In this document: in pieces, positions 3,617 to 28,874 of the stretch
How positions within the stretch are numbered: position 1 is the first letter of the stretch
Layout of the letters: each line of letters starts with the position of its first letter
Source: Jimgerdemannia flammicorona
Lineage: Eukaryota
DNA length: 38,149 nt
Assembly: GCA_003990765.1 (NCBI GenBank)
Contig: RBNJ01000168.1
Coordinates: 1 to 38,149 of the forward strand
Direction: 5' to 3'
Notes under the pieces: generated by a model
Told to the model about the DNA's origin: nothing
Seen by the model: the letters and a program-made list of their open reading frames with translations, nothing else
Databases searched by the model: none
Position numbers and translations under genes: made by a program

Positions 3617-3647
3617 GAGAAATATTGGTAAAGATAAAACCTCTTCT

Positions 3648-5691
3648 CTATAAATCTGCACTCAAGTCCACCTGTACCAAATCCAAGTCATGTCCTGCAG
3701 CCAGTATCTTCCTCCCAGTTCCCTGCACCTCCAAACTCTCAAGAAGTTCAACTATCACCCCATCCTCTTTCTCCTCAAAGTCCTCTCTATACTCCCTACA
3801 GGCCTCCTGCCAGAACTACAAACCATGGCATTCTGCCCAACAGTAGGCCGCCTGCTCACCCACAACAACCACCAGCTCCGCCTTCCTCACCTCATCCACC
3901 TCGTAACCCTCTTCCTCCAGCAGTATTGTAAGAATCTCCATCTGCAGTGCCTCCACCACTCCTGCACCTCGCGGAATCTGTGCCCAGTGCTCTTCTGGTA
4001 TAACCCTCAGATCCACTTCCCCCAACTCCTCAGCTGCAAGGTTATCCATCACCTTGCTCATCCACAGCAGATTCCCAATCTCCTTCCCTCCAGGGGTCTC
4101 TGGCCACCCTGCATCCAGCATCATAGTATCCACACCCACACTGACATCCTCATTCCACTCCTCTTCTGGGACATCCACCAGCTCATCCTCACCAACAGCC
4201 ACTACCTGGCCCCCTTTCGCCACATCTGGGACCCCAAAGGTAACCCGCTAGACCCCCTTCATTGATACATCTTCCGCTGCTCCTCTCTGCCCCACCGGGC
4301 CCCTCCTGATAAGTGGGGGGGGGGGTACTATCTGACTCCTCCTCCCAGACCTCAAAAGTACCATCTGCATAGGGATCCCTGCCCAGTATCTTCACAGCCC
4401 ATTCTTCGGTCACCACTGGCTCCTTACCACCTTCGCTAGCCCATACACTGGCTTTGATACCTCCAGACCCTTCAGCCCCATCAACCTTTCTCTTCTCCCC
4501 TCCAGTCATACTCGCCAAGAGCTCCCTCTGTCTCAAGTGCCCCTGAGCCCTCTCCCACTACCTCTTGTCAGTGCAGATACACTTCCCCTCCACAATCTCC
4601 AAGTGCGTCGACTCCTCATAAAGCTTCCAGGCCTTTGCCCACCACTCCACCACACCACTCATCTCCTCCAATGCCTCTAACAAATCCTCCTCCTCCTCCT
4701 CACTCTCCTTCACCCTCAACACTTTACAAATGAAGGCTCCCCACATCAACACTGAGGGCCAGTTGCCAGCCTTCTCTGTGGCCTCCCTCCCTGCCAGCTG
4801 AATTCTGACATCAACATCACCAGTCCTGATCATTGTCCCCTCCCATACCTGGAAGCCAATATCCACCACATCTCCATACTCCGCCATCACCTCCTCTACC
4901 CTCCTCCTCATCTCCTCCTTCATCGCTGTGGGCACCCCCTTCACCAGCAGCTGCACCACCCTGGGGTCCCACCTCAAACAGCATACCATGGGGACCACTA
5001 CCTTGCCAACTGCCACTCCTGCCCTCAGCACCTCTTCCAGTGGGCCTGCCTCCTCAAAGCCCACCTCAACTCCCTCCAGACCCCTCAGAAATTTCACCGA
5101 AGCTGCCCCAGCCACCTGCTTCAAGATAAGCCCCAAGACCATCTTTGCCATCACCCCTAAGCCTCGGAAGCACAGAGTCACCACAAACTCCGAGATTGAC
5201 TTCTTGAGTAACGGTGCCACCGCCAGTCCCATAACACCATCAGCCAGATCCCCCTTCTGTATCGGGACCCCCTGCCCCACCTGGCCATCAGCCGTTACAT
5301 CTCTTTTTTTTTGCTGATTCTCCATCATGCCCCCATCAGCAGTCACACCCCCAGCCACTGCTCCTCCAGCCCCTACTTCTGCACCTCCAGCCAGAGCACC
5401 ACCCCCCCTCCCTAGGCTCGCCTTGCCCTTCCCCTCAGCAGCACCAGCCCTACTACCAGCTGGCCACCCACTCTCCTTGACCTTGTCCGCGAAGCTTGGG
5501 AACCCAGACCTTCCCCCATTGTCACCAGCAGACCCTTGCCCTCCAGCCCTGCCTCCTCCTCCACCATGTCCTCCCACCAACAGGCCCCTCATGCTTCCCC
5601 CCAAGCCAGGTCCACTTCCTACATGCTGCCATCCAAACACTCCAGAGCCACCCTGCTCAGTACACACCTCAGGATTCTTGTCAGTAGCCAT
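3648..5691 (-). pseudogene. LINE ORF1 (Gly-rich N-terminus, RRM-like region, acidic/helical C-terminus), disrupted
   Basis: ATG at 5691. Tx1-type RRM-like segment VQLLVKGVP...EYGDVVDI...IRTGDVDVRIQL...WPSVL. In-frame stops at 4558 and 3816, a frameshift near the G10 run at 4316-4325, and a terminal TAG at 3648, 31 bp before the ORF2 ATG. Confidence 0.85.
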
Positions 5692-5770
5692 GATACTAGT
5701 AGCTTGTCTCCAGAAACTGCATCGAAAGTGTTGCCAAAAGATTGTGTAACCTGAATGTTACCAGAGAAAG

Positions 5771-7847
5771 GTGATCTCTCACCTCTCTTGTCAAGTCCAG
5801 ATAATGTTCAGCAGACACTGCCTTCTCTTCAGCCCTCTTAGTTTCCAGTCCTTCTAATAGCACCATCCTCCTTTTTCTCAAAGTCCTCATGATACTCTAG
5901 GCAGGCCTCCTGCCAGAGCTGCAAACCATGCCACTTCTCTCAGTAGTAGATGGCCCACTCACTAGCAACAACTGCCAGCTCAGGCTCCCTTTTCTTGTCA
6001 ACCTCATATCCTTCCTTCTCCAGGAAAACTATCAGTATCTCTGCTCTTAGTGTCTCCACCACTCCATTATCATGCAAGATCTCTGCTCAGTACTCATCAC
6101 TTATCTCTCTCAGGTCCACTTCTCCCAGTTCCTCTACTATAAGATTGCTCATCATCTGACACATCTACAGTAGATTTCCCACTTCTTTCCCCCCAGGGGT
6201 CACTGGTTGGCCTCTACTCAGTATGGAGATATCCTCCCCCATACTTATAGTCTCATTCCAACTCTTCTCTAAGACATCCAACAGTTCCTCCTTGCCAACT
6301 ACTACCACTTATCCACCTTTTGCTATCTCTGGAACCCCAAAGTGCACCTGCTGGGCCCCATATATGGGCACATCCTCTACTGCTCATCCCCTCACAGCTG
6401 GTCTCTGTCTGATAAGAGAGATAGATATGGGAGACTGCTCCCAGACTTAGAACATACTATTCTCATATGGGTTCTTACTCAGTACCTTCCTGGCCTCCTT
6501 CAGACCCCCCTCCACATTCTCCTCTAGCCCCCCAGCTCAGATGCTCACCAAATCTCCACCAGCATCTTCGCTTCCATTAGCAACCCTTGTCTTCTTCACC
6601 TCCAAGCTCACCAATAACTCTCTCTACCTTCTGTGACCTTGGGTCCTCTCCAACAGCCTCTTGTCAATATGGACTTGTCTTCCATCAACAATCTCTAAGT
6701 GTGTCAACTCTACATACACCTTCCATGCCTTTGCCCTATGCTCCACCATACTACTCTACTCCTCCAGTATCTCTAACAGATCTTCCTCCTCCTCCTCACT
6801 CCTCTTTATTCTTTACACCTTGCATATAAAGACTCTCCACATTATTGCTGAAGACCTATCATGTGTCTTGCCAGTAGCCTCTCTCTCCACCAATCAAATC
6901 TGGACATCAACATCTCCAGTCCAGAAGATGGTCCCTTCTCAGATGCTAAACTCTATATCAACTACCTCTTCATAATTAGCCATAACCTCCTCTACTCTCC
7001 TCCTTGTCTCCACAGCAGTCACTGTTGGCACTCCCTTCACCAGGAGCTGCACCATCCTGGGGTCTCATCACAAGCACCATGCTATTAGGATACACACCTT
7101 CTCAACTATCAACCCAGTCTTCAGTACCTCCTCCAGTGGCCCTGCCTCCTCAAAGCCCACCTCCATCCCTTCCAGACCCTTCAAGAACTTAATAGATACT
7201 GTGCCTTCCACCTGCTTTGCAATCAGCCCCAGAACCATTTTTGCCATCACTACCAAGCCTCTGAAGTACAGAGTGACTGCAAATTCTGAGATCATTTTTG
7301 AGTAATGGTGCTACTGCCAGTTCTGTTACACCATCAGCCAGGTCCCTAGGCCTTGTGCCCTTCTCACTACTTAATCTACTATCAACAGTTCTATCTGGAT
7401 TTTTTTCCAGATTGTCTGTCACACTCTTATCAGCCATCACCCCCTCAGCTACTACACCACCAGCCCCACTACTCTGGCCTCCCAGAGGAGCTCCCCCTCA
7501 GACCCCTGCTCTGTAGTCTTCATTATTACCTTTCTCCCCTCAGCCAACTCTCTAGCCCAGCTCCCTGCTGACCCCCCTTCACCTTCTCCATGAAGCTTGC
7601 CCTCTCTTTTCTCCGGCCTTCAGCACTACCCTCTCCCCTACCACATCCTCCTGCCATCAGGCCCCTCATACTTCCCCCCAAGCCAGGGCCCCTCCTTATA
7701 TATTGTTAGTTGAATGCACCAGGGCCACCATACCCAGTAGGCACCTCAGAATACTCATCAGTCACCATGATACTAGTATCTTTTCTCCAAAAACAGTATT
7801 GTAAGTATTGCCAAAAGTTGTATAACCTAAATGTTACTGGAGAAAGA
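5771..7847 (-). mobile_element. LINE copy 2: 5' UTR plus almost complete decayed ORF1, cut at the last ORF1 codons by copy 1
   Basis: Colinear with 3660-5770 (e.g. ggcctcctgccaga.ct.caaaccatg; EF.VTL.FRGL.VMAKMVLGLI.KQV). Shares the 5' UTR block ttgccaaaag...taacct.aatgttac..gagaaag. More stops than copy 1. Confidence 0.9.
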
Positions 7848-7865
7848 TATGTGTGACAGTATCTT

Positions 7866-8565
7866 CTCTTTCTTGAAGCCCACCTCCACTCCTTCCAGAT
7901 CCTTCAAAAATTCACCAAGGCTACTCTCTTCACCTTCTGAACTAGAAGTTCTAGAATCATCCTCACTATTATCACCAAGCTACAGAAATACAATGTGATA
8001 GTGAATTCTAATCTTGATTTCTTGAGTAATAATGCTACCACTAGGTCTATTATACCATCTGTTAGATCTCCAGACCTCATGCCCCCCCCTTGTTCAGATC
8101 TACTATCAATTATTATATGGATTTTTTTCCAGATTGGCAGTCTCCTTACCATCAGCAGTTCTGCTCCCCCCAGCCACTACTCCTCCAGCCCTACTGCCCT
8201 CACTGCTATGGACCACTCCCCTAGGCCTTGTAGTCCTTGCTGTCTCTTTGCCCTTTCTCAGCCAACTCTCCAATCTTATTGATGGCTGTCTCTCTATTAT
8301 CTTGTCAGCAAAGCTTATCCTCTCAGTCTCCTGTCTCTCTGTACTGCCTCCTTTCCTTCTATGTTCTCTAGCCAGCAAGTCTTGCATACTTCCCCCCAAG
8401 CTATAACTCTTCCCTACATACTACTAGTCAAATGCACTAGAACTACTCTACTCAGTATATATCTTAGAATACTCATTAGTTGCTATATTTCTAATACCTA
8501 TTCTCCAAAATCAAAGTTGTGAGTATTGCCAGAAGTTTGTATAATCTGAATATTACTGAAGAAAT
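7866..8565 (-). mobile_element. LINE copy 3: 5' UTR and ORF1 N-terminal part, most decayed
   Basis: Colinear with 5045-5770 (DL.DGI..L.VA.LLKKS..EFTITLYF). Third copy of the 5' UTR block at ~8485-8565. Confidence 0.85.
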
Positions 8566-8574: not shown

Positions 8575-8990
8575 CTCTGAAACATACTTTTCAAACTCCC
8601 AAACTTTGATCAACTAAATCTCCTTGTACTGTGCCATCTGTGCTATTATATTCTTCTAATATTGTATCCAAAGTCTCTTAGAGCTACTTCTCAGAAATAA
8701 GCTAGAGCTGTTTTGTCTTCTCTGAATAACTTATACACTCTTTTGGCAATAGTAATCTGAGTATAAGAGAGCTGACACTCTCTGATTCAATCTTCTTTTT
8801 TTATTTCTGACTTTGAGTTCAGTAGCTGTTCCAACTTGAAGTATTCCTGGAACTCAGTTCAGTTCTAGTAGATCTTGAAGTATGAAATTTATGACAAGTG
8901 TATCTATACTATACTCTAGATACTATCAAAGGATTCCTCTATAGTTGGTGGCTCAATGGAATACTACTGTCTTTCTATGGCTCATTATAT
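8575..8990 (-). pseudogene. Decayed accessory ORF downstream of element A integrase (unknown function)
   Basis: Manual translation gives FQEYFKLEQLL (8818-8852) and QITIAKRVYKLFREDKTALAYF*EVALRDFG (8668-8759). These resemble the ORF in the element B LTR. Boundaries are approximate. Confidence 0.6.
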
Positions 8991-11749
8991 ATTACTGGTA
9001 ATCTTGAGAGCTTTGGTATTACTTTGCTGGCTAGTTATGATATTTCTTAAGTTGGTTTCAATAAATGGTAGTGGGATGATTATGTCTGAGAGTTTTCATA
9101 GCCAAAAGGTAGTTCTTTTTATATTCTGCACCAGAAAAGATTCTTCCCACTTAGGCTCTAGTTTTCATAACCATGAAGCTTCTACCATATTCTAATATAC
9201 CTGGACTTTATCTTCTATCTTGATAATTTCCAAGAGCTTGTGAATCTTTTTCACATTATTCCATTGTAGTATCTGTATCTTAGTTATGTAATCCTCAGCC
9301 TTTTTCCTGATTTGGTATAGTCTCTATATCTCTATGTCCATATATTTTTATAAAGCATCTTCATTAAATAATAGAGTTCTTTGAGACTTTCTTCTCTAAA
9401 CAACATCTCCTGAGAGGTAAAATGGGTACTTTGTAATTAGATATCCCAGAGAGCAGATAATGCTATTGACAGATAGTGGTTCCAGTTTTCATAGTTATAA
9501 CAGATATTAGCAATGATATTCTTGAGAGTCTTATTTGTCCTTTCTGCTTATCTGTTTTCTTGAAAGTGATAGGCTGTAGTCTAATATATATACTGAATCT
9601 TATACTTCTTATAGAGAACCTCAAAGAACTGATTCATAAATTCTATTCCTCTGTCTGTAGTTACTTATATTGGGGTCTTGAACTAGCAAATGATTTCTTT
9701 GTAAAAGAAATCAGCAATTGACTGTGTATTGACTTCTTTGAGAAGTCCTGCCTCTATCTATTTTGTAAAAAGATTTATAATAACTATGATATATTAATTA
9801 CCAGTCAAAGTTAAGGGTAGAGTGCTGATTATATCTATTGCAATGTGTACAAAGGGTACTAGTTCTATGTATGCTGAGCCTGAGATCTGATTTTGTTGGT
9901 CCTGTTTCTGTTTCTGGTATGTATTTGTCATAGGTCTTGACAAATTATCTGATATTTTTCTCCATTCTGGATCACTTCATTGTTCTTTTTGCTTTTTTAT
10001 AAGTATTTGTTCCTCTTAGATAGCCAAGTTCATATACTGATTTCATTACTTACTCCTTCTTATATTTGGATATAACTAGTAGCTTTTCTTTCTTCAGTAT
10101 TTCTCTATCAGTTTTGAATTATTTCTATATTCTATTGATAATCATTTATGTTTATTCTTCTAGATATTGGGGCATCTTTCACTGTCTCAGATGGGTGATA
10201 ATTCCATAGTAAAGCTTTTTATTCTTTATTGATTTGTTGGTTGAGAATTCTTCAGAGTATTTGTGAGAGAGTATCTGTATTGGCATTAGTTCTTCCAGAG
10301 TAGTGCACAATGATTACATCATAGGCCTGCAACTTCATAATCTATCTAGTATAGATTCCTTTGAGTTGTCCAGTAGTCAGTAGCTAAGTGAGGGCTGAGT
10401 GCTCTGTTTGAATAGTGAAGTATCTTCTAACAAGATAGTAGTAGAATTTTTCTACAGCCCAGATGATGGTAAGACATTCTAACTTATAGGATTCATATTC
10501 TCTTTCAGCTCCTCAGATTCTTTAGCTAAGATATGTAATGATATACTCTACTTTGTCTTTCTTCTAGACCAGAACTGCTTCTATCCTTATGTACTTACAT
10601 CTGTCTACAAGATGAATTCTTGAATCCAATTGGATCTTCTGAAGATGAGTGCTTGAGTCAGTCTAATCTTGAGTTTATCAAATGCTTTTTGTTGCCTGCT
10701 GGTCCATTGGAACTTAATATTCTCCTTATTGAGTTCATAGATTAGTTCTGCAATATTGGAGAATCTTCTAATAAATCTGTGATAGTATGAGACAAGTCTT
10801 ATAAAAGCTTGGGCTTCAGTAATATTGGTGGGCTTTAGATATACTACTACTGCTTGAATCTTAAGAGAGTCTGTGTGTGTTCTATCTTAGCTGATGATAT
10901 GACCAAAGTAGGAGATCTTGATTTCTGCAAACTTGTACTTCTTAGGCTTGATATATAGGCCATGCTTCCTTAGCTTCTCTATTATCTGCTGAATATACTG
11001 CAGATATTCCTCTGGTGTTTTGCTATAGATAATTATATCATCCATATAAATTATTGTCTATCTTTCTATATCACAGTAAAAGATTTTATTCATCATTCAC
11101 TGGAAACTTACTAGTGTATTACAAATTCCAAATAGCATTCACAGATAGATATAGATTCCATCTGGAGTGATAAAAGCTGACTTCTTACTTACTGCTTCTG
11201 TGAGGATGATTTGATAAAATCCTGAGTATAAATCCAAGGTACTATAATACTATACTTCATCTCCCAGAGTTATAAATATATCACTGATAAGGGGCCATAA
11301 TTGGCAATCCTTCTTAGTAACCAGGTAGATCTTTCTATAATCAGTGCAGAGTCTTAGAGTAAATTCTCCTAGCTTATTTTCTTTCTTTGTAACTAGTATA
11401 ACTGATGAAGCCTAAGAACTACTAGTTTTTTTTAAAGATACCAGCTTCTTCCATCTGCTTGATTTCTTCTATAAGCTAATTGCAATAAACTAGTGGGATT
11501 GGCCTTACTTTTAGATAGATTGGTTCAGTATCTTCTGTATCTATATCATAATAGTAGTATTGTTTCTTTTCTTTGATATCCTTGAAATCTGTGGTCAGAA
11601 CATCCTTGAATTTATAGAATATCTTCTTGAGTTCTTTCTTGAGTGGAAATTCATTCCCAATAATATATATAGCTGTGCTTTCTTGTGCTTTCCTCCTTCT
11701 TGTAGTCCAATTTAGCAATTTTGATACTAGCAAATACTCCTCTTCCAGT

Positions 11750-12160
11750 GAATCCAAATTCTTTCCTTTCTCTCTCTATTTCCTTCAACTTTTTAACTTC
11801 TATGATTCTTAGCTATAGAACTGGGAAGATTAACATCTGCACTAGTTGGTCCTTTTTTTTGATTGGAAATAGAATCATAGAATTGTGATTTCTAGCAATA
11901 AGTAGTATTTCTTCAATATAATCTGAATTGATGACTCCTCCTTCAATAGTAATCTTACTCTTAGCTAAACTGCTTCTTGTCTTGAGGATTCTGACATAGT
12001 CTTTTAGAATAGTTATCTCCAGACCAGTTACAAGTAGGGCAGTTGTCTGGGGCTTGAGTATAGGTTCTTCTATTATAGTGATATCTATTTCAGCTGTATT
12101 TTCTAACTTGTATTCTAGTAAGACTATCAGAGTAGATTTTTCAAATCTTGAGCTTGATTT
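11750..12160 (-). pseudogene. dUTPase domain of element A pol
   Basis: TRSSLAKSKITIEGGVINSDYIEEI matches dUTPase motifs 2 and 3; colinear with the element B dUTPase. Confidence 0.85.
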
Positions 12161-14338
12161 CTTCTTCATCATTACTATTCTCTAGGAGGGCTGGTGGTTC
12201 ATTATCCTCTTCCTCTTCCTTCTTCTCTCTTTTCTTTTTTTGAGAGCCTTCTGTCTTCTTTCATGATTGATCTTAATTCTACTAATATACTGGTAGTAAT
12301 CATTCATATGCTCTATGCAATATATTCTAATTTTGTGGAGACAGACTCCTTATAGTGCATAATATTCTATGATTTTCTTGCACTAGTCTTTCTCACTCAT
12401 CTATCTGATATTCTTCTTCTTTTTCTAGGTAGTCACTATATAGATTTCTGCTTGCTCACTTTTTTCTTTCTCAATTTCAGAGAGTACTCCTTTGTTGATA
12501 TTGATAGAAATTCTCACCTTCTATCCTTGGTTGATAATCTGTATCTTTTGGATATTTAGATTAATTATTGCTCTGACTTTATGAAGCCACTGGTTGCTAA
12601 TGAGGATGTTATAGTTGATTACATATATTGATCATGATCACATCTACTGAGATAGTTGCTCCTCTAAACTTAATAAGAATATCTCAGATCTTTCTCAGAG
12701 GTGTGGTCCTTATTCCATCTGCAGTAATAAATACTAACTTAGTTACTTTCTCAATCTCCCAACTTAGATGATCTACTGCTTTCTTGCTGAGGAGGCATTC
12801 TCTGTCTCTAGTATCAATAATAGCCTCAAAGACTCTATCTTCAATCTGACAGATTGCATAGGCAGAGGTCTTGCAATTATCTTCACTTTCTTCTTTCAAG
12901 TCTTCTTGAATATTGTTGGCCTCAGTTATCTTCCAACCTTACTTCTTGGTTGTTTAGCAAGTCTATATCCCATTTGTTGTCTAAATGTAGGAATTTCTGC
13001 CAGCTGGTCAAAGGTTGTATTGATCTTTTATTAGCTGAGATCCTTGAAGATATCATACTTAAAGATCTTGGTTTTGCAAAGCTTCTTTGCTTTTTCTCCT
13101 TCACTGGCTAGGACTGGAGTAGTTCTTCAGATGATGTCTTAGATAGTCTATTCCAATTTCATATCTTGATCTACTCTTCAGCTTAGCTTTCTATGGCAGT
13201 CTCTATCTGCTTTTCCACAGAGTTCTTCTTGGGTCTTCCTAGTGATCACTTATAGGGTTTCTTATGGACATCTTTCTTAGTAGTCTGTGCAGAGTAGGCC
13301 TCCCATTCTTCTTCATCAGACTCTCCAATTTCTTTTAAGATAATAGTGTTGGCTTATTCCCTATTTTATGTAGTATTGCTTAGCTATACTTTATACTTGA
13401 TTTCACTTATACATTTATATAAAAAGTAGCCTTCTTCTCTACAGATAAAGCAGGTACCTCTCTTCTTGTCTGAGGTGGCAATAAATTTCTGAACTACATA
13501 GGCAACAGTCTCTTTCTCTGATTTCATTTACCATGTCTCCTAAGTGGGTAGTCATTTCAGTGAACTTCTTAGTTAGTTTCTCCATAGGGTCACTATTTCT
13601 CTACTACTCAGTAGCTTTTGGCTGAGGTGTGTTTTGATTGATCACTGTGATAGGAATTACACTTATTGCCTTAAGTACTTTAATTCTAACTCTAGTGACT
13701 CTTTCTATTGTATGGACTTGTAGATATCTAGCTGTCCAGTATTGCTAAGCATAGGTGACCTTTTGTACTAGTTCCAGGATTATTGGTAATGAGTAGATGG
13801 CCATAACTAACTCTAGATGGACTTCTTTTATGAAGGTTACTTCAGCTACTTAATCTTAGATGGCATCAGTATAATCTATAAAGATTATCTAATATCAGAT
13901 TCTAGTGTAAAATATGTTTGAATCCTCACTCATTCCTTATAGATTGAACTGATCCTTTAGAGCTTGCTTGATCTTATCTGTATAATAGGTGACTCAGAGC
14001 CAGGCCTTCTGTGCTGTCAGCACAGTATCATTATTATTTCCCACATAGGTTATAGCTATAAATACTGCTCTTGCAGGGCCTCAGAAACTGAAGAGTGTAA
14101 GGGCTACTTATTGTCCAGCTGTTAGAGTTCTTACAGTAGTATACTGCTAAAAATTATCAATATAAGTAATGATTGATTTATCTAAAGTATATCTATAGAA
14201 TACTAGTGATCTTATATCCATCTTGTCTGAATATCTCAGTTCAATTTGTGTGATTCTTCAAGTAGTAGTAGTAGTTGCTTATTATTCAGCTTAAAAGTGG
14301 GAAATTCATCTTGAATTACTAATTAATAGGCACCAATT

Positions 14339-14780
14339 TGTAGTATAGCAGATGTATAAGTGTGTAAGTATGTCAGATTTCTGTATCTTGAAAACTTAAT
14401 CTTCTTTGACTCTATAGAGTCCTTGGGATACAGGGGTGGGTAAGTTCAAAGTATATCTGTCTGCAGACTTACTAGTTATCTTACTTTCTCTTTACTTTAA
14501 ACTATTTTGATCTGAGGTTTATTTACTCTAGATACTAGAGATATTTATATAAGTTTGCTAGCTATAGAGTGGCTAAGTTATGACTATATTTCCCATAAGT
14601 TACTTTTTGCAAATATTGAATCTTTTCAATATCTGCTGAAGATTTTGATAATTGCAAGAATTTTGACATCTGCAGAATCTTTAGCAGTTGCTAAAGTTTC
14701 TATGTTTGCTAAATATAACTACTATTTATATGGCTAAGCTATATTTGAGAATCAGATTTAGGTACCATAATCAAATATCT
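14339..14780 (-). repeat. 5' LTR of element A, with candidate PBS at ~14320-14335
   Basis: On the minus strand the block ends ...ctactaca-like CA at 14339, then aat-TGGTGCC, the same arrangement as in element B. TATA-like TATATAAAT at ~14543-14551, AATAAA at ~14518-14523, ~19-bp subrepeats at 14600-14715. The far boundary is not resolved. Confidence 0.65.
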
Positions 14781-14863
14781 ATTCCTTTAATTTATATTAC
14801 TAATTAAGATTAACTATCATACTAAATATTACCAGAAATAGTAATCTATAGATAGCTATATAG

Positions 14864-16428
14864 TGTCACATAGTAGTCACTGAGTTCTTCAAATATATCA
14901 GATTCTCTTCAAAATATATCTCTTAGACTAACTCAAGTTTATTATAAGCAAGTTGTTATTGGAGTGCCTTCTCAAGGTCTTATAGTTCTCAAACTTCTTA
15001 TCTTTAAACTATCTTGTTATCTCTTAGATTGCTTGCAAGGAGGTGTATGTAAGTGAACCAGAACTGACTTTATTTCAAAGAAAATAAGAGTGATATTTAT
15101 ACAAAATACAATTCAATAGTTACTAAGATATAAGGCTAAATATAAATTCCAATAATCAAATAAAATGCTGGAATACAATTCCAGTGTTGATACAGATGGT
15201 TGTACAGGTTCAGGATACTGGTATAATTTCGATCATATAGGAAAATGGTGCTGGAATAATTCTGAGTCATATAAGGTCAGAATGCCAGTAGAGAAATAGC
15301 TATTATACAGGAAAAGAATACCAGTACAATTCAGTATAACTTAGAGCAGAAAGTTCAGGACTATGGGAGCTTCATTTTCATCAGAGGTCAGGATGTCTTC
15401 AAAGGAGATAAGATCAGTTTTGTTCATCTTGTTATCATATAGGTCACATATTTTATATATATTATACATTTGGCATATATTGCATAGGATGACATCATTG
15501 CTGATGATATCATCATATTTGGCAGTGGCAGGGGCTCTCCAATCTATAACATTCTCTTCTACAAAATAAGAAACAAATGTGGAGTCTTGGGGAGGTCTAA
15601 CCTGGATGCTGGGGCCTTAGAATACTGAGATCAATCCTTGCAGGAATTGATCTGGGTTGTCCTGAAGGATGGGATACCAGAACTCTTCTACCTCATCACT
15701 ATCAAGGGTGATAGTGGACTGAGCTTCTGTTGCCACTCTGGCTTCTAGTGCATTGATATGACAAGCTAACAGGTTTCTAAAGTCTGAGACTCTAGTATAC
15801 TCCAAGTTGAAGATCAATCATGGTGCATGCCTAAAGATCTGATGAATCTTCTTAGCTGTCCTTATTTTATATATATCCATAGAAGTAGCATTTTGTAACT
15901 CTTAAGGGCTGATCTGTGGGAACTCCCAGCAGAGAAGATTTCCTATTTCATACTTCTGCCATATTTGGAGGCATTTGGTAGTAATGGTGATCCTTGTTTC
16001 CATTTTATAGTGGTAGAGGATAAAGTGATAAGGATCTCTAGTATCCAGGTTAAGACTAGGAGTCCTTCTTGTATGGGTCCTCATGGCTCTTCTAATGTCT
16101 TGGAATATCCTTTCTTTGACTGAGTAGCCTTGGTGATTCCTTGACCTTGAGGTTTGGTAAGTGACAGACATTTCATTTGTGGTAAGTCTTTGAGCTATTT
16201 TGGGATTGGTGGGTCTTATTGAGTTGCTACTACTGCAGTTCCTTAATCCTTCTTTTATATTCCTCAAGATGCCTATTCTGTAGTCGCAATGACTCACAGT
16301 TGGTCAATATTACACATCTCATAACCTGGGTGAGTCATGCCATATGATCTTCTTATACTCTGAACTGGTGGCTTATAAGAAAAAGCTGTCTCCTATGCTG
16401 ATATCATTATTCAGAGGTCACCATTATA
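14864..16428 (-). repeat. 3' LTR of element B
   Basis: Runs tgtcacatagtagtcac...ggtcaccattata, a direct repeat of 22110-23678. Minus-strand TATAAAT at ~15095-15101 and AATAAA at ~15069-15074. Confidence 0.95.
15341..16171 (-). pseudogene. Protein-coding ORF embedded in U3 of the 3' LTR (~185 aa, possibly ~275 aa), unknown function
   Basis: Track ORFs 15902-16297 and 15617-15817 are in one frame, separated only by stops that are sense codons (CAA, TGG) in the other LTR. A possible extension runs to KTDLISFEDILTSDENEAPIVLNFLL* at 15341. Confidence 0.7.
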
Positions 16429-16438
16429 TCTTCCTCCT
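16429..16438 (-). promoter_or_regulatory. Polypurine tract of element B
   Basis: Minus strand AGGAGGAAGA immediately precedes the 3' LTR. Confidence 0.8.
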
Positions 16439-16799
16439 GAATAAGGATCTTCTTAAATATCCTTATTCATTAGTCTAGTCTTGAAAAATTTGCTGATCCC
16501 ATAACCTCTAGCAGGGGGTCGAAAAGTGATGTTTATGGGCTGGTATCTTCTTTTTGTATTTTGGAGTGATGGTGAAGAATCACTTCCTTCATATAGATCA
16601 AGGGTTAGATTTTGATCTTGACTAATCAGTTGATGGTTTGAACTTCTCTGATTTTGAAAGTCTCATGAATGAGTAGTTGCTGGTTCTATATCTTTTAGAG
16701 AATGGTTCAGACAGATTGTCTGCTGGTTATGGAATATGCTGATATGATTCACAAACTAGAACCTTACAGACATTCATCATGTTTTGCTTCTCTTATATA

Positions 16800-19700
16800 G
16801 ATTTGTGGTACTTCTTGAGTCTGTTCCTGTGTACCATAGTAGACAGTATGGTTTCTGAGAGTTTTCTAAGCCAAAAGGTAGTTCTCTTGATATCTTGCAC
16901 ATAGAAGAGTCATTCCCATTTGGGCTCCAGTTTTTGTGACCATGAGGCCTCTACCATATTTTGATATAGTAGGACCTTTTCTCTAATTTGGATGGGTTCT
17001 AGAGTCTTGGGATTCTTTTTCACATTTTTCTTTATCAGTACTTGTGACTTGGTGATGTAATCTTCAGCCTTCTTCCTAATTTGGTGTTGTCTCCAAATTT
17101 CTGAGTCAACCCATCTCTAAGTTAGGTCTAGATTTGTAGCTGAGGTTCCATCAGAATCTTCTTCTCTGAAGAGCCATTCTCTTGGGGTAAAGTGTATACT
17201 CTGTGACTGTATATCTCATAGGATAGAGAGAGTGGTTGGGAGGTAGTTATCTCAATTCTCATATGTATCTGAGATCTTTGCTAGGATGTTTTTGAGAGTC
17301 TTATTAGTTCTCTCTGTCTGTCTATTTCCTTGAGGGTGGTATGTGGTGTTCTTGATATACTGAATCTTGTATTTCTGATATATTATCTCATAGAATCTAT
17401 TGACAAATTCTGTGCTATAGTCTGTGGTGATTTGCTTTGGTGTCTTGTAGTGGCAGATGATTTCTCAGTTCAGGAAGTCAGCTATAGAGAGAGCATTGGC
17501 TTCTTGTAATGATCCTGCTTCTATCCATTTGGTAAAGAGGTCTACAATAACTATAATATAGTGGTTTTCTGATAGTGTCACTGGTAGTGGCCCAATGATA
17601 TCTCTTGCAATGTAGCAGAAGGGGATAGGCTCAATTCTTGACAACCTAGGTGCCTGGTCTTGCTGATCTTGTTTCTGTTTTTGGCACTTGTCACACCTTT
17701 TGACAAATTGGTGCAGGTCTTCTTCCATCCTAGTCCACTATATGGTTCTTTTTACCTTGTCATATATGTTGGTTCCTTCTAGGTATCCTTGTTCATATAC
17801 TTCCTTCATTACTTGATACTTCTTATATTCAGGTATTATAAGCTTTCCTCTTTTTTGGAGTATAGTTTTGTCTAGTTCAAATTATTTCTAAGTCCAGTTA
17901 ATGATAGTAATAGTCCAGGGTTCAAGATGGTTGGACATCTTCCACTGCCTAAGGTAGCTGATTAATCCATAGTATAGCTCCTTATTGATGTTGAATAGTC
18001 TTGATGGGAATGTTCCAGAGTATCTTTGAAAGTACATCAGCATTGGCATTGGTTCTTCCTGAGTGGTGCTTAACAATACAGTTATACTCTTGCAGTCTTT
18101 AGATCTATCTGGCATATATTTCTTGGGGGTTCAGAGTATGGAATAGCTAGGCAAGGGCAGAGTGATCTGTTTGAATAGTGAAGTATTTCCCAGCTAGGTA
18201 GTAGTGGAACTTGTCTACTGCCCAAACTACTGCTAAGCATTCAAGCTTACATAACTTGTAGTTCTATTCTGCTCCATGGGTACCTCAGCTTACATAGGAG
18301 ATAATATATTTATGTTCATCTTTCTTCTGAGCTAGGACTGCTCCAAGTCCTATAGTACTTGTATCTGTCTGCAGGATGAACTCTAGGTTCCAATCTGGTC
18401 TTCTGAGGATGGGTACTTGGGTCAATCTGGACTTGAGTTCATTGAAGGTTTCTTGGCATTCCTTGGTCTATTTGAATTTGGTCTCCTTCTTCAGTAGCTT
18501 ATAGATAGGTACTGCAATGTTGGAGTATCCTTTGATGAATCTTCTGTAATAGGAGACCAGTCCAAGGAAGGCATAGACTTCTGTGGTTGTTCTGGGTCAT
18601 GGGTAGGCTGCAACAGCCTCAATATTTATGGAGTCTGTATAAATTCCAGTCTGGTTGATGAGGTGTCCCAGGTAGGTGATTTCCTGAACTACAAACTTGC
18701 ACTTCTTAGGCTTGATGTAGAGGGCATACTCCTTGAGTCTCCTGAGGGCTAGCTGTACATGGTTGACATATTCCTGTACAGTATTGCTGAAGATGATTAT
18801 ATCATCAATATAGACAAAGAGCCATTTTCCAATCTCATTACTGAAGACTCTATTCATTATTTGCTAAAAACTTGCTAGAGCATTGCACATTCCAAATGGC
18901 ATTCACAGGTAGATATAGGTGGTATCAGATGTGATGAAGGCTGATTTCTCACTGGTATCTTGAGTGAGACCAATCTGGTAGAAACCTGAGAACAGATCCA
19001 AGGTGGTGTAGTATTTGGCTTCACTTCTAAGGATAGTAAGGATTTCTTGAATATTTGGCAAGGGCTGCCTATCCTTCTTGGTGATTGCATTGAGCTTCTT
19101 GTAATCAATGCAGAGTCTTGGGGCAAACTCTCCAGGCTTGTTTCTTTTCTTTGAGGCAAGGACAATGGGTGAAGCCCAGGAGCTGATAGCTTGCTTGATG
19201 ATTCTGGCTTCTTCTATTTCCTTGAGTTCTGCTTGCAGCCATTCTCTGTAAGTAGGTGGTATTGGTCTGGCTTTCTGGTAGATGGGCTTGGTATCACTGG
19301 TGTCAACTTCATGATAGTACTTGGGTTCTTGATTGTGGATATCCCTGAAGTCTATAGTAAGTACTCCTTTGTTCTGGTGCAAGATTTTGAGTAGCTGTTC
19401 TTCTAAGGAAATGTTTTCTCCAATGGTATATGTGTGCTTGTTCTGGTCCTTATCTTTCTTGTACTTAATTTTGGTAATCTTAGTGTCAGCATAGACTCCT
19501 CTTCCAGTAGATCCAAAGCCTTGTTCTCCTCTCTTAGTCTTGATGAGTTTGATGGCTTCTATGATCTTGGGTTTCTTGACTTCATGGATCAGCATCTGGC
19601 CAATCCTGTCATGCTTCTTGACTTTAAATGGGGTGGTGGGATTGTGATTTCTGATTATAAGGAAGATCTCACCTGTGTAATCAGAGTCAATTACTCATTC

Positions 19701-22070
19701 TTCAACTGAGATTTTGCTTTTGGCCAGACTGCTCCTGGTTTTGATAATTCTGGCATAATTTTCTGGCAACTTGACTCCAATTCCAGTGCCAAGTAGAGTG
19801 GTGGTCTGAGGTTTGAGGATAGTATCTTGAATGCCAGCAAGATTCATTTCTATGGCTCCTTCAGTCTTGTATTCTGGAATCTTGGCTCTAGGGTGAAACT
19901 TCTTGACCTTGAGAGTGATGTCTGGTTATTATTCCTCCTCATCATCACTGTCAGCTTTAAGCTCTAGAGGTTGGTCATCTTCTTTGGCTTTCTTTTTTAC
20001 TTCAGTAGCTTCTTGCTCATGCTTTTGTTGACAGATTTTTCTGACTTCACTGATATAGGACCAGCAGTCATTCAGATGTTTGGAACAGTACATTCTGGTA
20101 CCATGGGGGCATCTTCCTTGAGGGGCATAGTCATCAATGATCTTGTTGTACCACTGCTTATCTGTGAGCTTGGGTGTCTTGTTTTTGTTCTTGTTCACTG
20201 AGTGCATGAAGACTTCTGTATCCTCCTCATCTCCTTTCTCCATATTTGGTAGAACTCCTTTGTAGACATTGATAGAGACTCATACCTTTTTTCCTCTATA
20301 GTTGATCTGTATCTTCTGGACATTGAGGTCAATAATGGCCTTCACCTTGTAAAGCAATTGATTGTCAATAAGGATGTCATAGTTTGTGGTACTTGTAACA
20401 ATCATATCTACTAGGATAGTAGCTCCTCCCATCTTAATGGGGACTTCTTGGATCTTGCCAAGGAGAGTAGCTCATATACCATCTGCTGTAATATAGACTA
20501 TCTTAGTGGACTCTTCAATGTCCCAGCCTAGGCAGTCAATTGCCTTCTTACTCAGAAGACATCCTCCAGCACTAGTATCAATGATAATATTAAAGATATA
20601 ATCTTCAATCTGACATAGGGTATAGGCTGATGTCTTGCACTGGTCTTCAGATTCTTCATCTGAGTTTTTGGATTCTTCTTGTACATTGTGAGCTTCTACA
20701 ATCTTGTACTCTTGATTCTTGATAGTGGTTGCAAGTTCTACTCTCAACTACTGTCTGAAGGCAGGGACTTTGGCTAGTTGTCCAAAAGTAACATTGACCT
20801 TCTGTTCTTTAAGGTTCTTATAGATATCATACTAGTGGATCTTGGTCTTGTAAAGCTTCTATTCCTTCTTGTATTCACTTTCTCCTGAGACTAGAGTAGT
20901 GCCTTCAATAATTTGGTGAGCAGCTTCATCTAACTCCATATCTTGGTCAATCTCCTCAGGTTGGGTCTTGCTTTGAATAGTGACAGCTGGGGTCTTCTTT
21001 GGTCTTCTAACTGGCTTGCTGTTGCTCTTCTTATCATAGGGCTTGGACCAGGTTCTGACACCTTTAGTAACAGAGTAGTATTCAGATTCCTCATAGTATT
21101 CTTCATCATCAGTGTCACCAATCACCTCAATAACTACTGTATTGGTTTGTTCTCTAGTTCTGATAGTATTGCTGGGTTGGGTCTTATATCTTGTTTTGGT
21201 CATGCAACTCTTTGCATAGTGGCCTTCTACTCCACATCTGAAGATATGATATTGTATTCTTCTATAGCAGCTGCAAATCTCTGTACTGGTCTCCTGTTAG
21301 CACTTCAGACTTCTCTAACAATATCACTAAGGTGTGCAGTCATCTCAGCAAACTGCTTGGCAAGTTTCTCCACTAGGTCGCTTTAGCTGTCTTGGGGGAT
21401 GGTTGTCTGTTTACAACTGTAGTGGGTATAATACTGGTTGGCTTTGATGGCTCCATCTTGATGCCAGTTATTTTCTCTATTGAGTATTCAGCAGAGTGTC
21501 TGGTAGTCCAATATCTCTGTACAAAGACCACTTTCTGATCAAGAGTCAGAGCAGCCAGTGTAGACCAGTTGCTAGAGCAATTTCAGAGTGAACTCCTTTC
21601 AGGAAGGTTGAATCTGCTATTTGTTCCTTGAGGGCATCATCATAGCCAGCTAAGACAATCTGGTAGCAAATTTAGATATAGAATGAGTTAGGATCTTCAC
21701 TGAGTCCATGACAGATAGTGTTGAGTTGATCCTTGAGAGCTTGCTTGATCTCTTCAGTATAGTATGTAGTTCTGAGGAAGGTCTTCATGTTGGCAAGTTT
21801 GGCTGCACCAGTATTAGCAATAGTGGCTACATTGAACTTGTCTCTGGCAGGTCCTCTGAGGCTGACTGGTAGAAGGGCCAATTGTGCATCCACATTGAGG
21901 ACTCATATGGCAGCAAATTGTTCAAAGTCTACAATGAAGGTCAGAATTAACTCTTCAGTAGTATAGAATATAGGGGGACATATTTCCATCTTGTCTTGAA
22001 TTCTTGCAGGGGTGACTCTTGTAGTCAGAGTAGTTATTGTAGGGGTTGTTTATTTTTTAGCTTAAAAGTG
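16800..22070 (-). pseudogene. gag-pol of element B
   Basis: Knuckle FRCGVEGHYAKSC (~21203-21243); protease IIDTSAGGCLLS (~20570); RT WASPIV, LCIDYKKLN, LDLFSGFYQI, YIDDIIIFS; RNase H (~18000-18400); integrase CDKCQK, DIIGPLP, DLFTKWIEA, KLEPKW, VHRNRLKKY. Many stops and some frameshifts. Confidence 0.95.
19500..19920 (-). pseudogene. dUTPase domain of element B pol, between protease and RT
   Basis: LKVKKFHPRAKIPEYKT, TGIGVKLP, TRSSLA, IDSDYTGEI, DRIGQM, RGEQGFGSTG (trimeric dUTPase motifs). Confidence 0.93.
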
Positions 22071-22089
22071 AGGAATTCATCTTGGATCA

Positions 22090-22106
22090 CCAGCCAATGG
22101 ATACCA
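22090..22106 (-). promoter_or_regulatory. Candidate primer binding site of element B
   Basis: Minus strand: LTR ...acatgaCA, then act, then TGGTATCCATTGGCTGG. The cognate tRNA was not determined. Confidence 0.65.
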
Positions 22107-22109: not shown

Positions 22110-23678
22110 TGTCATGTAGTAGTTGCTGAGTTCTTCAAATATATCAGATTCTCTTCAAGGTGTATCTCTTAGACTAACTCAAGTTTGTTATAAGCAAGTT
22201 CTTATTGGAGTACATTCTCAAGGTCTTATAGTACTCAAACTTCTTATCTTTAAACTCTCTTATTATCTCTTAGATTGCTTGCAAGAAAGTATGTATAAGT
22301 GAACCAGAACTGACTTTATTTTAAAAGAAATAAGAGAGGTATTTATACAAAATATAATTCAATAGTTGCTAAGATATAAGGCTAAATATAAATTCCAATA
22401 ACCAAATAAAATGCTGGAATACAATTCCAGTGTTGGCACAGATGGTTGTACAGGTTCAGGATGCTGGTATAATTTCAGTGATATAGGAAAATAGTGCTGG
22501 AATAATTCTGAGTCACACAAGGTCAGAATGTTGGTGGAGGAATAGCTATTATACAGAAAAAGAATGCAAGTATAATTCAGTATAACTTAGAGCAGAAAGT
22601 TCAGGACCATGGGAGCTAAATCTTCATCAGAGATCGATGTCTTCAAAGGAGATGAGATCAGTTTTATTCATCTCATTGTTATATAGGACATACATTTTAT
22701 GTATGTTGCACATTTTGTATATATTGCGCAATTCAATGGGATGATATCATCACAATGATGTCATCACATTCAGTGACAGTGGGGGCTCTCTAATCTATAA
22801 TATTCTCTTCTACAAAATAAGGAACAAATATAGTATCTTGGAGAGGTCTAATCTGAATACTGGGGCCTTAGAATGCTGAGATCAATCCTTGCAAGAATTG
22901 ATCTGGGTTGTCCTGGAGGATGGGATACCAGAACTCTTCTACCTCATCACTATCAAGAGTAATAGTGAACTGGGCTTCTATTACCACCCTGGCTTTTAGT
23001 ATATTGATATAGTGGGCTGATAGGTCTCTGAAGTCTGAGACTCTGGTATATTCCAAGTTGGAGATTGACCATAGTATATGTCTGAAGATCTGATGAATCT
23101 TCTTAGCTGTCCTTATTTCACATATATCCATGAGAGTGGTATCTTGTAACTCTTGAGGGCTGGCCTGTGGAAACTCCTGGCAGAGAAGATTTCTTATTTC
23201 ATACTCCTGCCATATTTAGAGGTATTCAGTAGCAATAATGATCCTTGTTTCCATTTTATAGTAGCAGAGGATAAAGTGATAAGGATCTCTGATATCCAGG
23301 TTGAGGCTAGGAGTCCTTCTTGTGTGGGTCCTCATGACTCTTCTGATGTCTTGGAACATTCTTTCTTCAACTGAGTGATCTTAGTGATTCTTGACCTTGA
23401 GGTTTGGTGAGTGGCAGACATTTCATTTGTAGTAAGTCTTTGAGCTATTTTGGGATTGGTGGGTCTTATTGAGTTGCTACTACTGTAGTTCCTTGATCCT
23501 TCTTTTATATTCCTCAAGATACCTATTCTGTAGTTATAATGACTCATAGTTGGTCACCATTACTCATCTCATAGCCTGGGTGAGTCATACCATATGATCT
23601 TCTTGTACTTCAATCTGGTGGTTTGTAAGGAAAAGCTATCTCCTGTGCTGATGTTATTATTCTGGGGTCACCATTATA
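22110..23678 (-). repeat. 5' LTR of element B
   Basis: Runs tgtcatgtagtagttgc...ggtcaccattata, a direct repeat of 14864-16428. Confidence 0.95.
22587..23421 (-). pseudogene. Second copy of the LTR-embedded ORF
   Basis: MSATHQTSRS (1-nt frameshift) ... PYHFILCYYKMETRI ... IRTAKKIHQIFRHILWSISNLEYTRVSDFRDLS ... FLQGLISAF*. Confidence 0.7.
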
Positions 23679-23741
23679 ATAGTAATTAGATTATAATAAT
23701 AACTATATAAAATACCTCAGAAATTTCAGTAAATAAACCTT

Positions 23742-23833
23742 AGTCTGAAAAGTTTCAAAGTAAAAGATAAGTCTGCCTACTATACTTTAAGAGATATGTC
23801 TGCCAAAAGCTACTTAATCTAGGAAGAATTACA
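23742..23833 (+). repeat. LTR 3' tail of element C (5' copy)
   Basis: 92-bp ungapped match to 28582-28673 with 12 mismatches, ending in CA; preceded by TATATAA and AATAAA. Confidence 0.8.
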
Positions 23834-26800
23834 ATATTTAGAAAAAATACCTACTCTAAAGCTACTTTTAGAAAATTGTAAGCTTAACTTTCAATTTATA
23901 CTCTAGCTTGCTTTTTGATATAAAGAAGAAGTTTACTAATTGGGAAAGAATGTATATCATCCAAGTTATCTACTATTTTTAAGAAATCTGCTTTATTCAA
24001 GAAGTCTTCCAAAATGTACTATATTATACTAATTCTAACTATTAAAAAAATACTATTGAAATCATTTACCAAAATTATTTGCATTATATAAATAAGAACT
24101 TATATCTATTTCTTATACTAGAAGTTATTAAATATTTTGTTACTTTTGATAAAGTAAACCGAGGGCTCAAGTCAATCTATATAATAGCTCTAATCTTGTA
24201 ATTTGTCTTAATTGAGCTAGTATATTATATTTGGATAATTTTTCAGCTTACAAAAACCCAACAGCCAAACTGAATATATTTAATATAGCACTAATCTCTA
24301 TCACTATAGGAGAATAAGTCATTACTAGTATTTAAATAAAAAGAGAACTAATTATCTCAAGACTTATCAATTACTCAGTATCAGAAGGATCTTAACAAGA
24401 AGCCAGCAGAGTACAGAATCCTCAACCAGAGTCAGCTCAATTACTAAGAGTTCAGCTTATAAATATCTCAGAAATACCAGTAGACTTACCACTAAGAGAT
24501 CTAACTAAGCCAGAGAATACAGAAGACTAAGCTCAAACTTTTGATAAACTTGAATAAAAACTTGAAGACTATATTTATCAATTTTGATTTTCTGCAAAAA
24601 TACTACTAATTACACTACTATATATCTAAACTAGCAGATCCTCTCAGCGCAGTATTTTCAAAGATACTCAGACCTACTATATCTTACTTAAAAACTCCAA
24701 CTTCAGGATACTCAAGTATTCTAAGCTCTAATAATAACTCAGAAAGTAAATCAGAATCAGAATTAAAACTAGAAGAAAAAGGCCACCCTAATAACAATCT
24801 TTACAGAATATCTAAAAGATGTCCCAAGAGAATTTCTTAATATAATTGAAGGAATTATAGCTCTTAAGAATCTCACTACTTAGAAAAAGATTGTTATCTT
24901 TAAAGCCCAACTCAGGAAATTAGCCAAAGAAATTTTCATCTGAGTAGTAAATAATATATATAGATCTTAAAATAGCCATTCAAATAGAAGTATCTTGAAA
25001 TAAATAATATAAAGTCATAACCAACTAACTTATTGAAAAATATACAGAAAATGAAATCTATTATAAGGTTCAATATCTATTATAGAGATGAAGATAAATC
25101 TTAAAGAATTACTCGAAGCATTCTTTATCAGATCTAGAAAAGAATATATATAGCCAGATTTAATGTTACTAATCAGAATATTATAGGTTCAATGATCTTC
25201 ATAAATGAGATTCTCCCAAACATTATCTAGTATATCTATATCTTATATATCAAAAGGCCTGAAGAATAAGTAGATATAGCTTAGTAATTTTTCAATATAT
25301 ATTAGACAAGGAACTATCTGAAGTAATTATAATAAGAAAGATTATAAGAAAGACCTCTTGTTTAAAACCCTACAAGAACTCCTTCAAGAATATAGAAAAC
25401 CAAAAGAAGAAAAGCCAGTTAAGGAGTAGAAGAAAGAGAGAAATGAAATCCAGGACCTCAATTCCAAGTTAGACTAATTGGTTGAGTAAATTAAAAAACT
25501 TACTATATATGAAAATTAAAGCTATCCATAAGACAATAGAGGTTATATATTACAAAGAAACTAAAACTATCTACTCTGAGATAGAGCTCAAGTTCAATAC
25601 TTCTATTGTAGAGAGTTTGGATACTTATCATAAATTATAATAGTAGAATAAGTGACTGAAGAGACTAAGAACCACTAAATTGAAAAAATACAACCTAGCA
25701 CAAGAAGACTGAAGCTCACTCCATTGAAGATTTTAAGGAGAAAAGTAATAGTAATGACTACAGTGACCTGAATCTGTATCCAACTAAGATCATCTCTTAG
25801 GAGCAGCTGTCTGTATCATTGTCAAATAATTTCTAGACACCCTCTAGTAGCCCATTGATAGATCATCTAATCTCAGCATTATAGTAGTAGATGGAGCCCA
25901 AACTCAACCCTTGGGATAAGTACAAAACATTACTATCACTCTTAGATATATCTAGTTCTCTGCTCCAAAGGTTGTTATTACTAAAGCTGTTATCTATAAT
26001 ATGACCCTTGGTACCAACTAGATGAAGAAAATAAATACAGATATTGATATTAGTCAATAGGTGCTCAAATTCGACTACAGAGAAAAGAAATACTGAATCA
26101 AGGTGACCAGCTATGAGCAATTGAAGAAGAAGAAGATTATTATTCAGAAAGAGTATACTAATAGTAAAGAATCTACTATAGAGAAAGAAGAAGAATCTGA
26201 AGATAAAAATAAGCCCAGACTCAACCTATGAATCAATCTTATAGATGATAGGCCAGAAGACAATATATAGATAAAAGATACCATCTCTATTACAATCAGA
26301 GTTATTACAGAATAAGCTAGAGAGTACTCTATCTGTCTCAAAAGATACAATGCTCTGAACATTTCTCTAAGATTATTGAAATAAGGAATTTATCTGGTAT
26401 AGTCTATCTAGAATATAAAAAAAGAAAGATGAAATATAACTACTCTCTATAACTAAAGCTGTAGAAGTATAAGCAATCTAGGATCAAGAAATATCAGATA
26501 AAGAAATCTCTAAACAAGAAGTTTCTAAATAGGAGAAATTCTCTAAACTTATTTTTTAAGATAACTCTTAATAGATACTACTAGAAGATAATGATCTCTG
26601 GAATACTGAAGAAGGGCCAAGCATAGTTACTATTATTTTAAGATAAGAAATAACCCAGAAAAGAGTCTTTTAGCTAGAAACTTATCAGTATCAAATAGTC
26701 TTTCACTCTCTCCAAGACTACTGCTATCAGTATTACTTACTAGGCTAATAAGAAAACAGAGATACTGTAGATCAGAATTTCTAATTATAATTACTCAGAT

Positions 26801-28581: not shown

Positions 28582-28673
28582 AGTCTGAAAAGCTTCAAAG
28601 CAAAAGACAAGTCTGCCTACTACACTTCAAGAGATATGCCTGCCAAAAGCCAATTGATCCAGGAAGGATTTCA
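28582..28673 (+). repeat. LTR 3' tail of element C (3' copy), fused directly to the truncated RT
   Basis: Matches 23742-23833. Confidence 0.8.
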
Positions 28674-28874
28674 AATTTCAAAATAAAATATTTCAAATTT
28701 CAAATTTCGTACTTTATTTTCCCCTAATGCATTTTTTAATATGCCAGCGCTATACAATGATGCTACGCAATACTGAGTCACCTTCAATCATTTGTGACGT
28801 CAGAATCAATGATATTTTGGCGATGTTGAGTGGATTCGCTACATCCTTTTTCATTCCTTTCACCAAAAGACACA

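Follow-up and report, generated by a model that had tools for sequence, protein, structure and literature searches.

Genes located inside the U3 region of an LTR, or overlapping it, are known in retroviruses: MMTV sag, lentiviral nef and the bel region of foamy viruses. The sag gene is a complete U3 ORF that is present in both LTRs of the provirus and lies upstream of the LTR TATA box. In foamy viruses, an internal promoter serves the trans-activator, and nef and bel/tas run into U3. LTRs are usually taken to be control regions without coding content, and masking removes them ahead of gene calling; standard annotation is therefore blind to a conserved gene in an LTR.

In LTR retrotransposons of plants and fungi, additional ORFs (aORFs) are placed by passages of PMC7264820 within the internal part of the element, for the most part after pol and before the 3' LTR. 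Examples given there are the env-like ORFs of Athila and Bagy2, antisense ORFs of Grande, RIRE2 and Retand, and brtn of Boty. A dUTPase between PR and RT is described, in parts of PMC2864245 and PMC5408684, for the basidiomycete element PosPlaTy3-5 and for Juno, Vesta and TelKA of bdelloid rotifers. The rotifer elements also gather diverse extra ORFs, according to the same passages. In searches of freely accessible full texts, covering the articles proper, no paper turned up in which a Gypsy or Copia retrotransposon has a gene within its LTR. The "within the LTR" passages of PMC6875170 and PMC12801592 concern unrelated matters, and so do the passages of PMC12786077 and PMC13486581.

An LTR-housed accessory gene of a retrotransposon is thus, within this literature, so far undescribed. 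The one reported here would combine retroviral positional logic in a retrotransposon with a new protein family. It was detected in the window, by which we mean the whole 38,149-nt stretch of Jimgerdemannia flammicorona DNA taken into analysis. Like sag, it is a whole ORF of similar size situated in the LTR, occurs in both repeats and lies upstream of the presumed genomic TATA box. Unlike sag, it resides in a retrotransposon of the Gypsy order, not in a betaretrovirus, and has its own TATA motif directly upstream. The use of U3 as 3' coding space is shared with nef and foamy bel/tas; if the mechanism proposed below holds, a separate promoter for a regulator and an acidic activating tail would be shared as well. 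However, nef and bel/tas merely overlap U3, whereas the start of this gene is 257 nt into the LTR; no homology to them was found. With aORFs, as passages of PMC7264820 characterize them, it has in common that it is an element-specific extra gene, conserved across copies and devoid of cellular homologues. It differs from them in being located inside the LTR itself, in sense orientation, and not in the internal region. The host element also resembles the dUTPase-bearing Gypsy elements, since its dUTPase lies between protease and RT as in the passages cited above; those passages place the extra ORFs (ORF3) internally and mention no LTR-borne gene, in contrast to the LTR-borne gene here.

All internal genes of the element are read on the minus strand. 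The element itself thus lies on the minus strand, its 5' LTR being the right repeat and its 3' LTR the left one. Its features are as follows.

14864-16428, minus strand: 3' LTR, 1565 nt, direct repeat with 22110-23678, adjoined by the polypurine tract
16429-16438, minus strand: polypurine tract, sense AGGAGGAAGA, abutting the 3' LTR
16439-22098, minus strand: decayed internal region, from Pfam matches and the ORF list
17252-17737, minus strand: integrase, zinc-binding and core pieces (Pfam)
18285-18467, minus strand: RT_RNaseH_2 (Pfam)
18597-19300, minus strand: RT, RVT_1 (Pfam)
about 19500-19925, minus strand: dUTPase domain (Pfam)
20280-20747, minus strand: protease (Pfam)
20859-21296, minus strand: gag with CCHC zinc knuckle (Pfam)
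22099-22106, minus strand: PBS-like TGGTATCC, 3 nt inside the internal region, after the 5' LTR
22110-23678, minus strand: 5' LTR, 1569 nt, direct repeat with 14864-16428
14860-14864 and 23679-23683, no strand: probable 5-bp target-site duplication ATAGT, requiring a 1-nt shift of the LTR edge

The internal order is gag-PR-dUTPase-RT-RNaseH-IN. Integrase follows RT, and this order fits a degenerate element of Ty3/Gypsy type. Paired LTRs, a PBS-like site by the 5' LTR and a polypurine tract by the 3' LTR are all present. The dUTPase assignment between PR and RT is based on PF00692 matches (E 1.6e-10 and 9.9e-6) on ORFs 18903-19694 and 19695-19925. Integrase_H2C2 at 17465-17737 scores 22.8 bits, under the cut-off of 25.5, and feature matches of the RT piece in the Atlas are below 0.9. 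The two LTRs differ by 12.5% over 1562 aligned positions, with 178 transitions, 17 transversions and 12 indel columns.

CpG is nearly absent from transposon sequence of the window (observed/expected 0.00-0.04 at 8000-28500, versus 0.95 at 28500-38149), which fits a host methylating or hypermutating repeats. Only one gene resembles a host gene, an NmrA/isoflavone-reductase-like exon at 36713-36946 with about 40% identity to plant reductases. Both observations, as well as the dUTPase between PR and RT, are compatible with a fungal host without establishing it.

Each LTR houses one copy of the frame.

15341-16171, minus strand: gene copy in the 3' LTR (left copy), 276 codons and a final stop, broken at codons 90, 118 and 185
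22587-23421, minus strand: gene copy in the 5' LTR (right copy), the worse preserved of the two, showing stops, a gap of 1 nt around codon 12 and further indels over the C-terminal third

The left copy begins with ATG at 16171 and terminates at 15341-15343. In both LTRs the ATG lies at the same depth, and the left-copy stop falls 477 nt short of the LTR end. The remaining five frames of the same 828 nt contain 10-29 stops each in the left copy. Among 5000 base shuffles the mean number of stops was 16.8 and the minimum 4; none had three or fewer, the number found in the real sequence.

Lesions of the two copies are largely complementary. Codons 90 and 118 are stops in the left copy and sense codons in the right one. 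The left copy, in turn, is open where the right one shows a stop of its own and, near codon 12, a gap of 1 nt. In addition, the C-terminal third of the right copy carries extra stops together with gaps of 1 nt and 2 nt and an insertion of 8 nt. Both copies share the stop at codon 185. Since both U3 regions derive from one template, this stop is most simply regarded as inherited, which suggests that the gene had been truncated before the element inserted here. The gene copy in this window is dead. The initial annotation had described LTRs of about 1.57 kb, each with a sense-strand frame upstream of a TATA box and with complementary lesions. All of this agrees with our data, the sense strand being the minus strand of the window; only its inventory of lesions was too short, as it understated the damage to the right copy in the C-terminal third.

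We wondered if related genes occur elsewhere. The left frame, read through with X at its three stops, served as query (P0001). A word-indexed search retrieved five proteins, the best of which, P0002 (271 aa), is 68% identical with 100% query coverage (E 6e-110). When 1.84 billion representatives were searched exhaustively with HMMER, five clusters emerged, including distant ones at 41% (P0009), 33% (P0011) and 30% identity (P0012). Profile search raised the total up to 12 proteins. In the reverse direction, tblastn with P0002 matches the left copy over its full length (E 2e-118), and the HMM score is 369.5.

These relatives fall into four divergent groups with identities of 27-79%. The first consists of the window gene, P0002-P0007, P0010 and P0016, the second of L001/P0013, the third of P0009 and P0011, and the fourth of P0012, P0014, P0015 and P0017. 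Intact full-length ORFs have 271, 323, 325 and 342 aa, and all start with MP[AP]. Every relative covering codon 185 has a sense codon at that site, so the ancestral ORF was the longer version of about 275 codons. Of the two lengths considered in the initial annotation, about 185 and about 275 aa, the latter is therefore the right one. Longer or fused forms were not detected at E<=0.001, which is weak evidence.

All matches are environmental or genomic proteins from "ena" or "jgi" sources, from contigs of 0.6-4.8 kb (4.8 kb for P0011, 2.4 kb for P0007), and are nameless or termed "hypothetical protein". They lend no support to the multicopy family in Glomeromycotina and Mucoromycota that the initial annotation brought up: none of these nameless matches has an NCBI or UniRef source, and 1.84 billion representatives contain only five clusters. 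Searches of 5.8 billion and of 1.84 billion proteins revealed no cellular homologue.

A metagenome scan with P0003 identified one locus, L001. A scan with profile A3 produced 243 pattern matches, of which 0 were confirmed, and IMG/VR scans with P0011 and P0002 gave no confirmed locus. L001 is a metagenome contig of 1345 nt, an LTR-internal fragment without flanking gag-pol, with an intact ORF of 323 codons at 69-1040. It is the one relative whose LTR context was read as DNA.

Within the window, tblastn and HMM searches detected no further gene copies beyond those in the two LTRs. A candidate at 8599-8852 was rejected, its match lacking both collinearity and significance (E 0.85). The window also contains, at about 8.6-14.8 kb, a related but older Gypsy copy in which tblastn and HMM searches likewise reveal no trace of the gene; the gene is thus not universal in the lineage.

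Selection on the frame was estimated from 214 codons aligned between L001 and the left copy within the conserved body. By codon position, the differences amount to 0.35/0.20/0.55. In frame, pS is 0.80 (saturated) and pN 0.25, with pN/pS of 0.31; in the two shifted frames of the same alignment, pN/pS is 1.01 and 1.47. Nucleotide identity is 64% in the ORF body versus 45% in the rest of the LTR (downstream). This is a signature of purifying selection. Since the window copy has decayed neutrally after insertion, the true constraint is stronger than the pN/pS figures indicate. When the two LTR copies are compared with each other, the values are 0.42 in frame versus 0.74 and 0.65 in shifted frames. 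Mutable C/G at third positions may be behind this gap; the comparison was set aside as evidence.

Taken with the intact diverged homologues, the pN/pS of 0.31 with L001 bears out the central proposal of the initial annotation, a protein-coding gene wholly contained in both LTRs of a Gypsy-order element. We conclude that the LTR very probably contains a real, selected gene of the element.

The gene product represents a new protein family without known domain or fold. Pfam has no family for the window pieces, the L001 ORF, P0002, P0009, P0011 or P0012. At E<=1, nothing was found for nine of nine members, barring a chance-level ATG5_HBR match (E 0.088) in two of them. A PDB sequence profile gave 0 matches at E<=1, and the protein shows no similarity to the element's own gag. 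Neither was homology to Sag detected, no Pfam family being matched at E<=1. Sag is a type II membrane glycoprotein, whereas the LTR-gene protein is acidic, helical and soluble-looking.

AlphaFold2 with a 9-sequence alignment reached a pLDDT of 51.7. A core-only model based on 14 sequences has pLDDT 66.1 and pTM 0.52; it is mainly helical with a short beta-hairpin. Fold searches returned nothing above noise: the best E was 0.42 in BFVD and 2.5 in PDB with Foldseek (core model). VIA-align hits with the best Z of 5.8 and 5.7 are generic helices, well below what counts as noise when models are helical. Nothing informative came from the ESM Atlas, where the top feature score was 0.83 and the top TM 0.33. 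Structure prediction and Foldseek comparison, which the initial annotation suggested for a consensus protein, matched no known fold.

With models of low to middling confidence that match nothing, any functional guess has to be drawn from composition. In four of four full-length members, which cover the four groups, the N-terminal part has a net charge of +1 to +7 and the tail of -14 to -25. The basic N-terminal patch is weak in the P0011 group (net +1). The tail comprises 51-121 residues, 15-26 of which are F/W/L/I, and its sequence diverges freely. Such acidic composition studded with F/W/L/I is typical of acidic activation domains. We tentatively propose that the protein might be a nuclear regulator of element expression, either a trans-activator or an RNA-handling factor; this guess, drawn from composition, is more likely wrong than right. 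Its role would be comparable to that of retroviral 3'-end accessory proteins in logic, not in ancestry. Short motifs sought by eye in the tail (clathrin box, LIR, SIM) were rejected, as no single motif is found across the four groups.

Further, we examined the signals surrounding the ORF. They are listed below in the sense direction of the LTR.

16331-16337 and 16290-16296, minus strand: two TGASTCA heptamers (AP-1/Gcn4-type, motif match only), LTR 92-98 and 133-139
16252-16262, minus strand: TATA1 GAATATAAAAG, LTR 167-177, 82 nt upstream of the ATG; also at 23502-23512 and L001 1-11
LTR 258, sense: ATG
LTR 1086-1088, sense: stop
LTR 1160-1166, sense: third TGASTCA
15094-15103, minus strand: TATA2 TGTATAAATA, LTR 1326-1335, presumed genomic-RNA promoter; also at 22340-22349 and L001 1216-1225
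15069-15074, minus strand: AATAAA poly(A) signal, LTR 1355-1360; also at 22315-22320 and L001 1244-1249

The TATA1 11-mer (TATAAAAG) and the TATA2 10-mer are identical in L001 and both window LTRs. In L001, TATA1 stands 58 nt before the ATG, with no other ATG between. From the start of TATA2 to AATAAA there are 29 nt in the window and 28 nt in L001, and the surroundings of TATA2 are otherwise hardly alignable between the two. In the 5' LTR, the two upstream TGASTCA heptamers lie at 23581-23587 and 23540-23546, again upstream of TATA1. Across the window TGASTCA is not enriched (10 occurrences versus 7.4 expected, with at least 10 in 21 of 100 shuffles); six of the ten are in the two LTRs. The initial annotation did not mention TATA1, the additional conserved TATA motif that shortly precedes the ORF.

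A TATA motif just before a poly(A) signal corresponds to the layout of an LTR with short R. For this reason TATA2 is taken as the putative genomic promoter, and the ORF is probably located in U3 rather than in R/U5, in agreement with the initial annotation. We propose that each LTR would have two promoters. TATA1, preceded by the two TGASTCA heptamers, would drive a monocistronic mRNA about 1.1 kb long, which would begin shortly ahead of the ATG and end at the LTR's own AATAAA. TATA2, 28-29 nt before AATAAA, would start genomic RNA. Expression of the gene would then need no splicing and could proceed from either LTR of the element as well as from a solo LTR. That the ORF has its own promoter in TATA1 is suggested by these motifs, with chances that we put just short of even. 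As reverse transcription copies U3 to both ends, each insertion holds the gene twice, and it is plausible that a solo LTR keeps it. Altogether, the best explanation of the locus is a conserved accessory gene of about 270-340 codons in U3, with its own promoter and a regulator as product, and we hold this whole account with modest confidence.

Expression might instead resemble that of sag, nef or env, by a spliced subgenomic mRNA from the genomic promoter, with TATA1 being irrelevant. Retroviral 3'-terminal accessory genes are known to use such mRNAs, and the ORF in the 3' LTR is necessarily within the genomic transcript. Spliced env-like mRNAs are also reported for some plant elements, in passages of PMC7264820. 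However, no acceptor-like sequence upstream of the ATG is common to L001 and the window, an argument that is weak since L001 offers just 68 nt there, whereas the 11-mer TATAAAAG upstream of the ATG is identical in both. We regard this route as unlikely.

Somewhat less credence is given to TATA1 being the genomic promoter itself. The ORF would then be located in a very long R/U5 and represent the first cistron of genomic RNA. TATA1 with the upstream TGASTCA heptamers does resemble a complete promoter, and the position of AATAAA beyond the ORF would formally allow an R region of about 1.17 kb. On the other hand, L001 and the window share TATA2 and its 28-29 nt distance from AATAAA in a stretch with otherwise only 45% identity; such conservation is expected only if TATA2 is used. 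Moreover, genomic RNA would have to bypass the 5' LTR poly(A) signal 1.1 kb past the cap. This arrangement is thus improbable.

The frame could also be a transduced host gene or its fragment, a passenger without role for the element. Gene capture by LTR elements is known (passages of PMC7264820), and the protein has neither a retroelement-type domain nor similarity to the element's gag. Nevertheless, the searched 5.8 billion and 1.84 billion proteins hold no cellular homologue, and all matches are on short unnamed contigs with no longer or fused form. One relative, though just 53% identical, still has the ORF in the same setting of promoter and poly(A) signal, and intact ORFs in four diverged groups argue for long-term retention, so that a passenger origin is very unlikely.

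Finally, that there is no gene at all, the frame being a chance opening or conserved as cis-regulatory DNA only, is hardly credible: both window copies are broken and known domain or fold was not found, but none of the 5000 shuffles had three or fewer stops, third-position excess and pN/pS of 0.31 are confined to this frame, and intact ORFs at 30-40% identity occur on independent contigs.

The preferred account, an accessory gene in U3 with its own promoter, has a more far-reaching version. The LTR might be an autonomous gene composed of promoter, ORF of 270-340 codons and poly(A) signal, the product of which would regulate the neighbouring genomic promoter in trans. We consider this version speculative and rather doubtful. 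If true, a retrovirus-style feedback circuit would be contained within a terminal repeat, and each solo LTR that recombination leaves behind would go on supplying the entire family with the factor.

Should expression follow the proposed scheme, coding use of U3, known in a few retroviruses, has arisen in a retrotransposon too. Gene dosage would be doubled with each insertion, and solo LTRs could supply the factor in trans. The product would then represent a new protein family, of no known domain or fold, that is testable for control of retroelement expression. The gene would also provide a concrete system for asking how accessory genes of retroelements arise.

The frame of about 275 codons carried inside each LTR of the Ty3/Gypsy-type element (hereafter LTR gene) is broken in both copies. 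Comparison of these dead copies (15344-16171 against 22590-23421) gave pN/pS of 0.42 in the frame of the gene, and 0.74 and 0.65 in the shifted frames. After insertion both copies should drift neutrally, and the lower in-frame ratio departs from this expectation. The gap between in-frame and shifted-frame values may be an effect of third-position composition.

An older related Gypsy copy lies directly upstream of the element, and its internal regions are 71-74% identical to those of the element. No trace of the LTR gene was found in this copy by tblastn or HMM; either its LTRs have been lost, or the gene was never present in that relative. Both the element and this older copy contain a dUTPase domain (PF00692). 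In the element it is located between protease and RT, an arrangement reported for basidiomycete and bdelloid rotifer elements (PMC2864245, PMC5408684). Features detected around the LTR gene are as follows:

913-3405, minus strand: LINE-like ORF with endonuclease and RT
4558-5757, minus strand: unassigned LINE-like ORF of 399 aa
About 8600-14860: older related Gypsy copy
11813-12181, minus strand: dUTPase domain of the older copy
19500-19925, minus strand: dUTPase domain of the element
36713-36946, plus strand: exon of NmrA/isoflavone-reductase-like gene (Pfam E 3e-11)

The block with the LINE-like ORFs occupies positions 1-8000, where GC content is 52%, the plus strand is much richer in C than in G (GC skew -0.3 to -0.5) and internal repeats are spaced about 2.1 kb apart. 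The NmrA-like exon, sharing ~40% identity with plant phenylcoumaran benzylic ether reductase, is the sole recognisable host gene in the whole window.

Region 23679-28500 is AT-rich (GC 28-30%) with positive AT skew and lacks CpG; its ORFs of at least 70 aa yielded no Pfam matches. Throughout transposon sequence (8000-28500), CpG observed/expected is 0.00-0.04, compared with 0.95 in the last 9.6 kb (28500-38149). Among the differences between the two LTRs, transitions outnumber transversions 10:1 and are chiefly CpA/TpG to TpA. This pattern suggests either cytosine methylation directed at repeats or a process resembling RIP.
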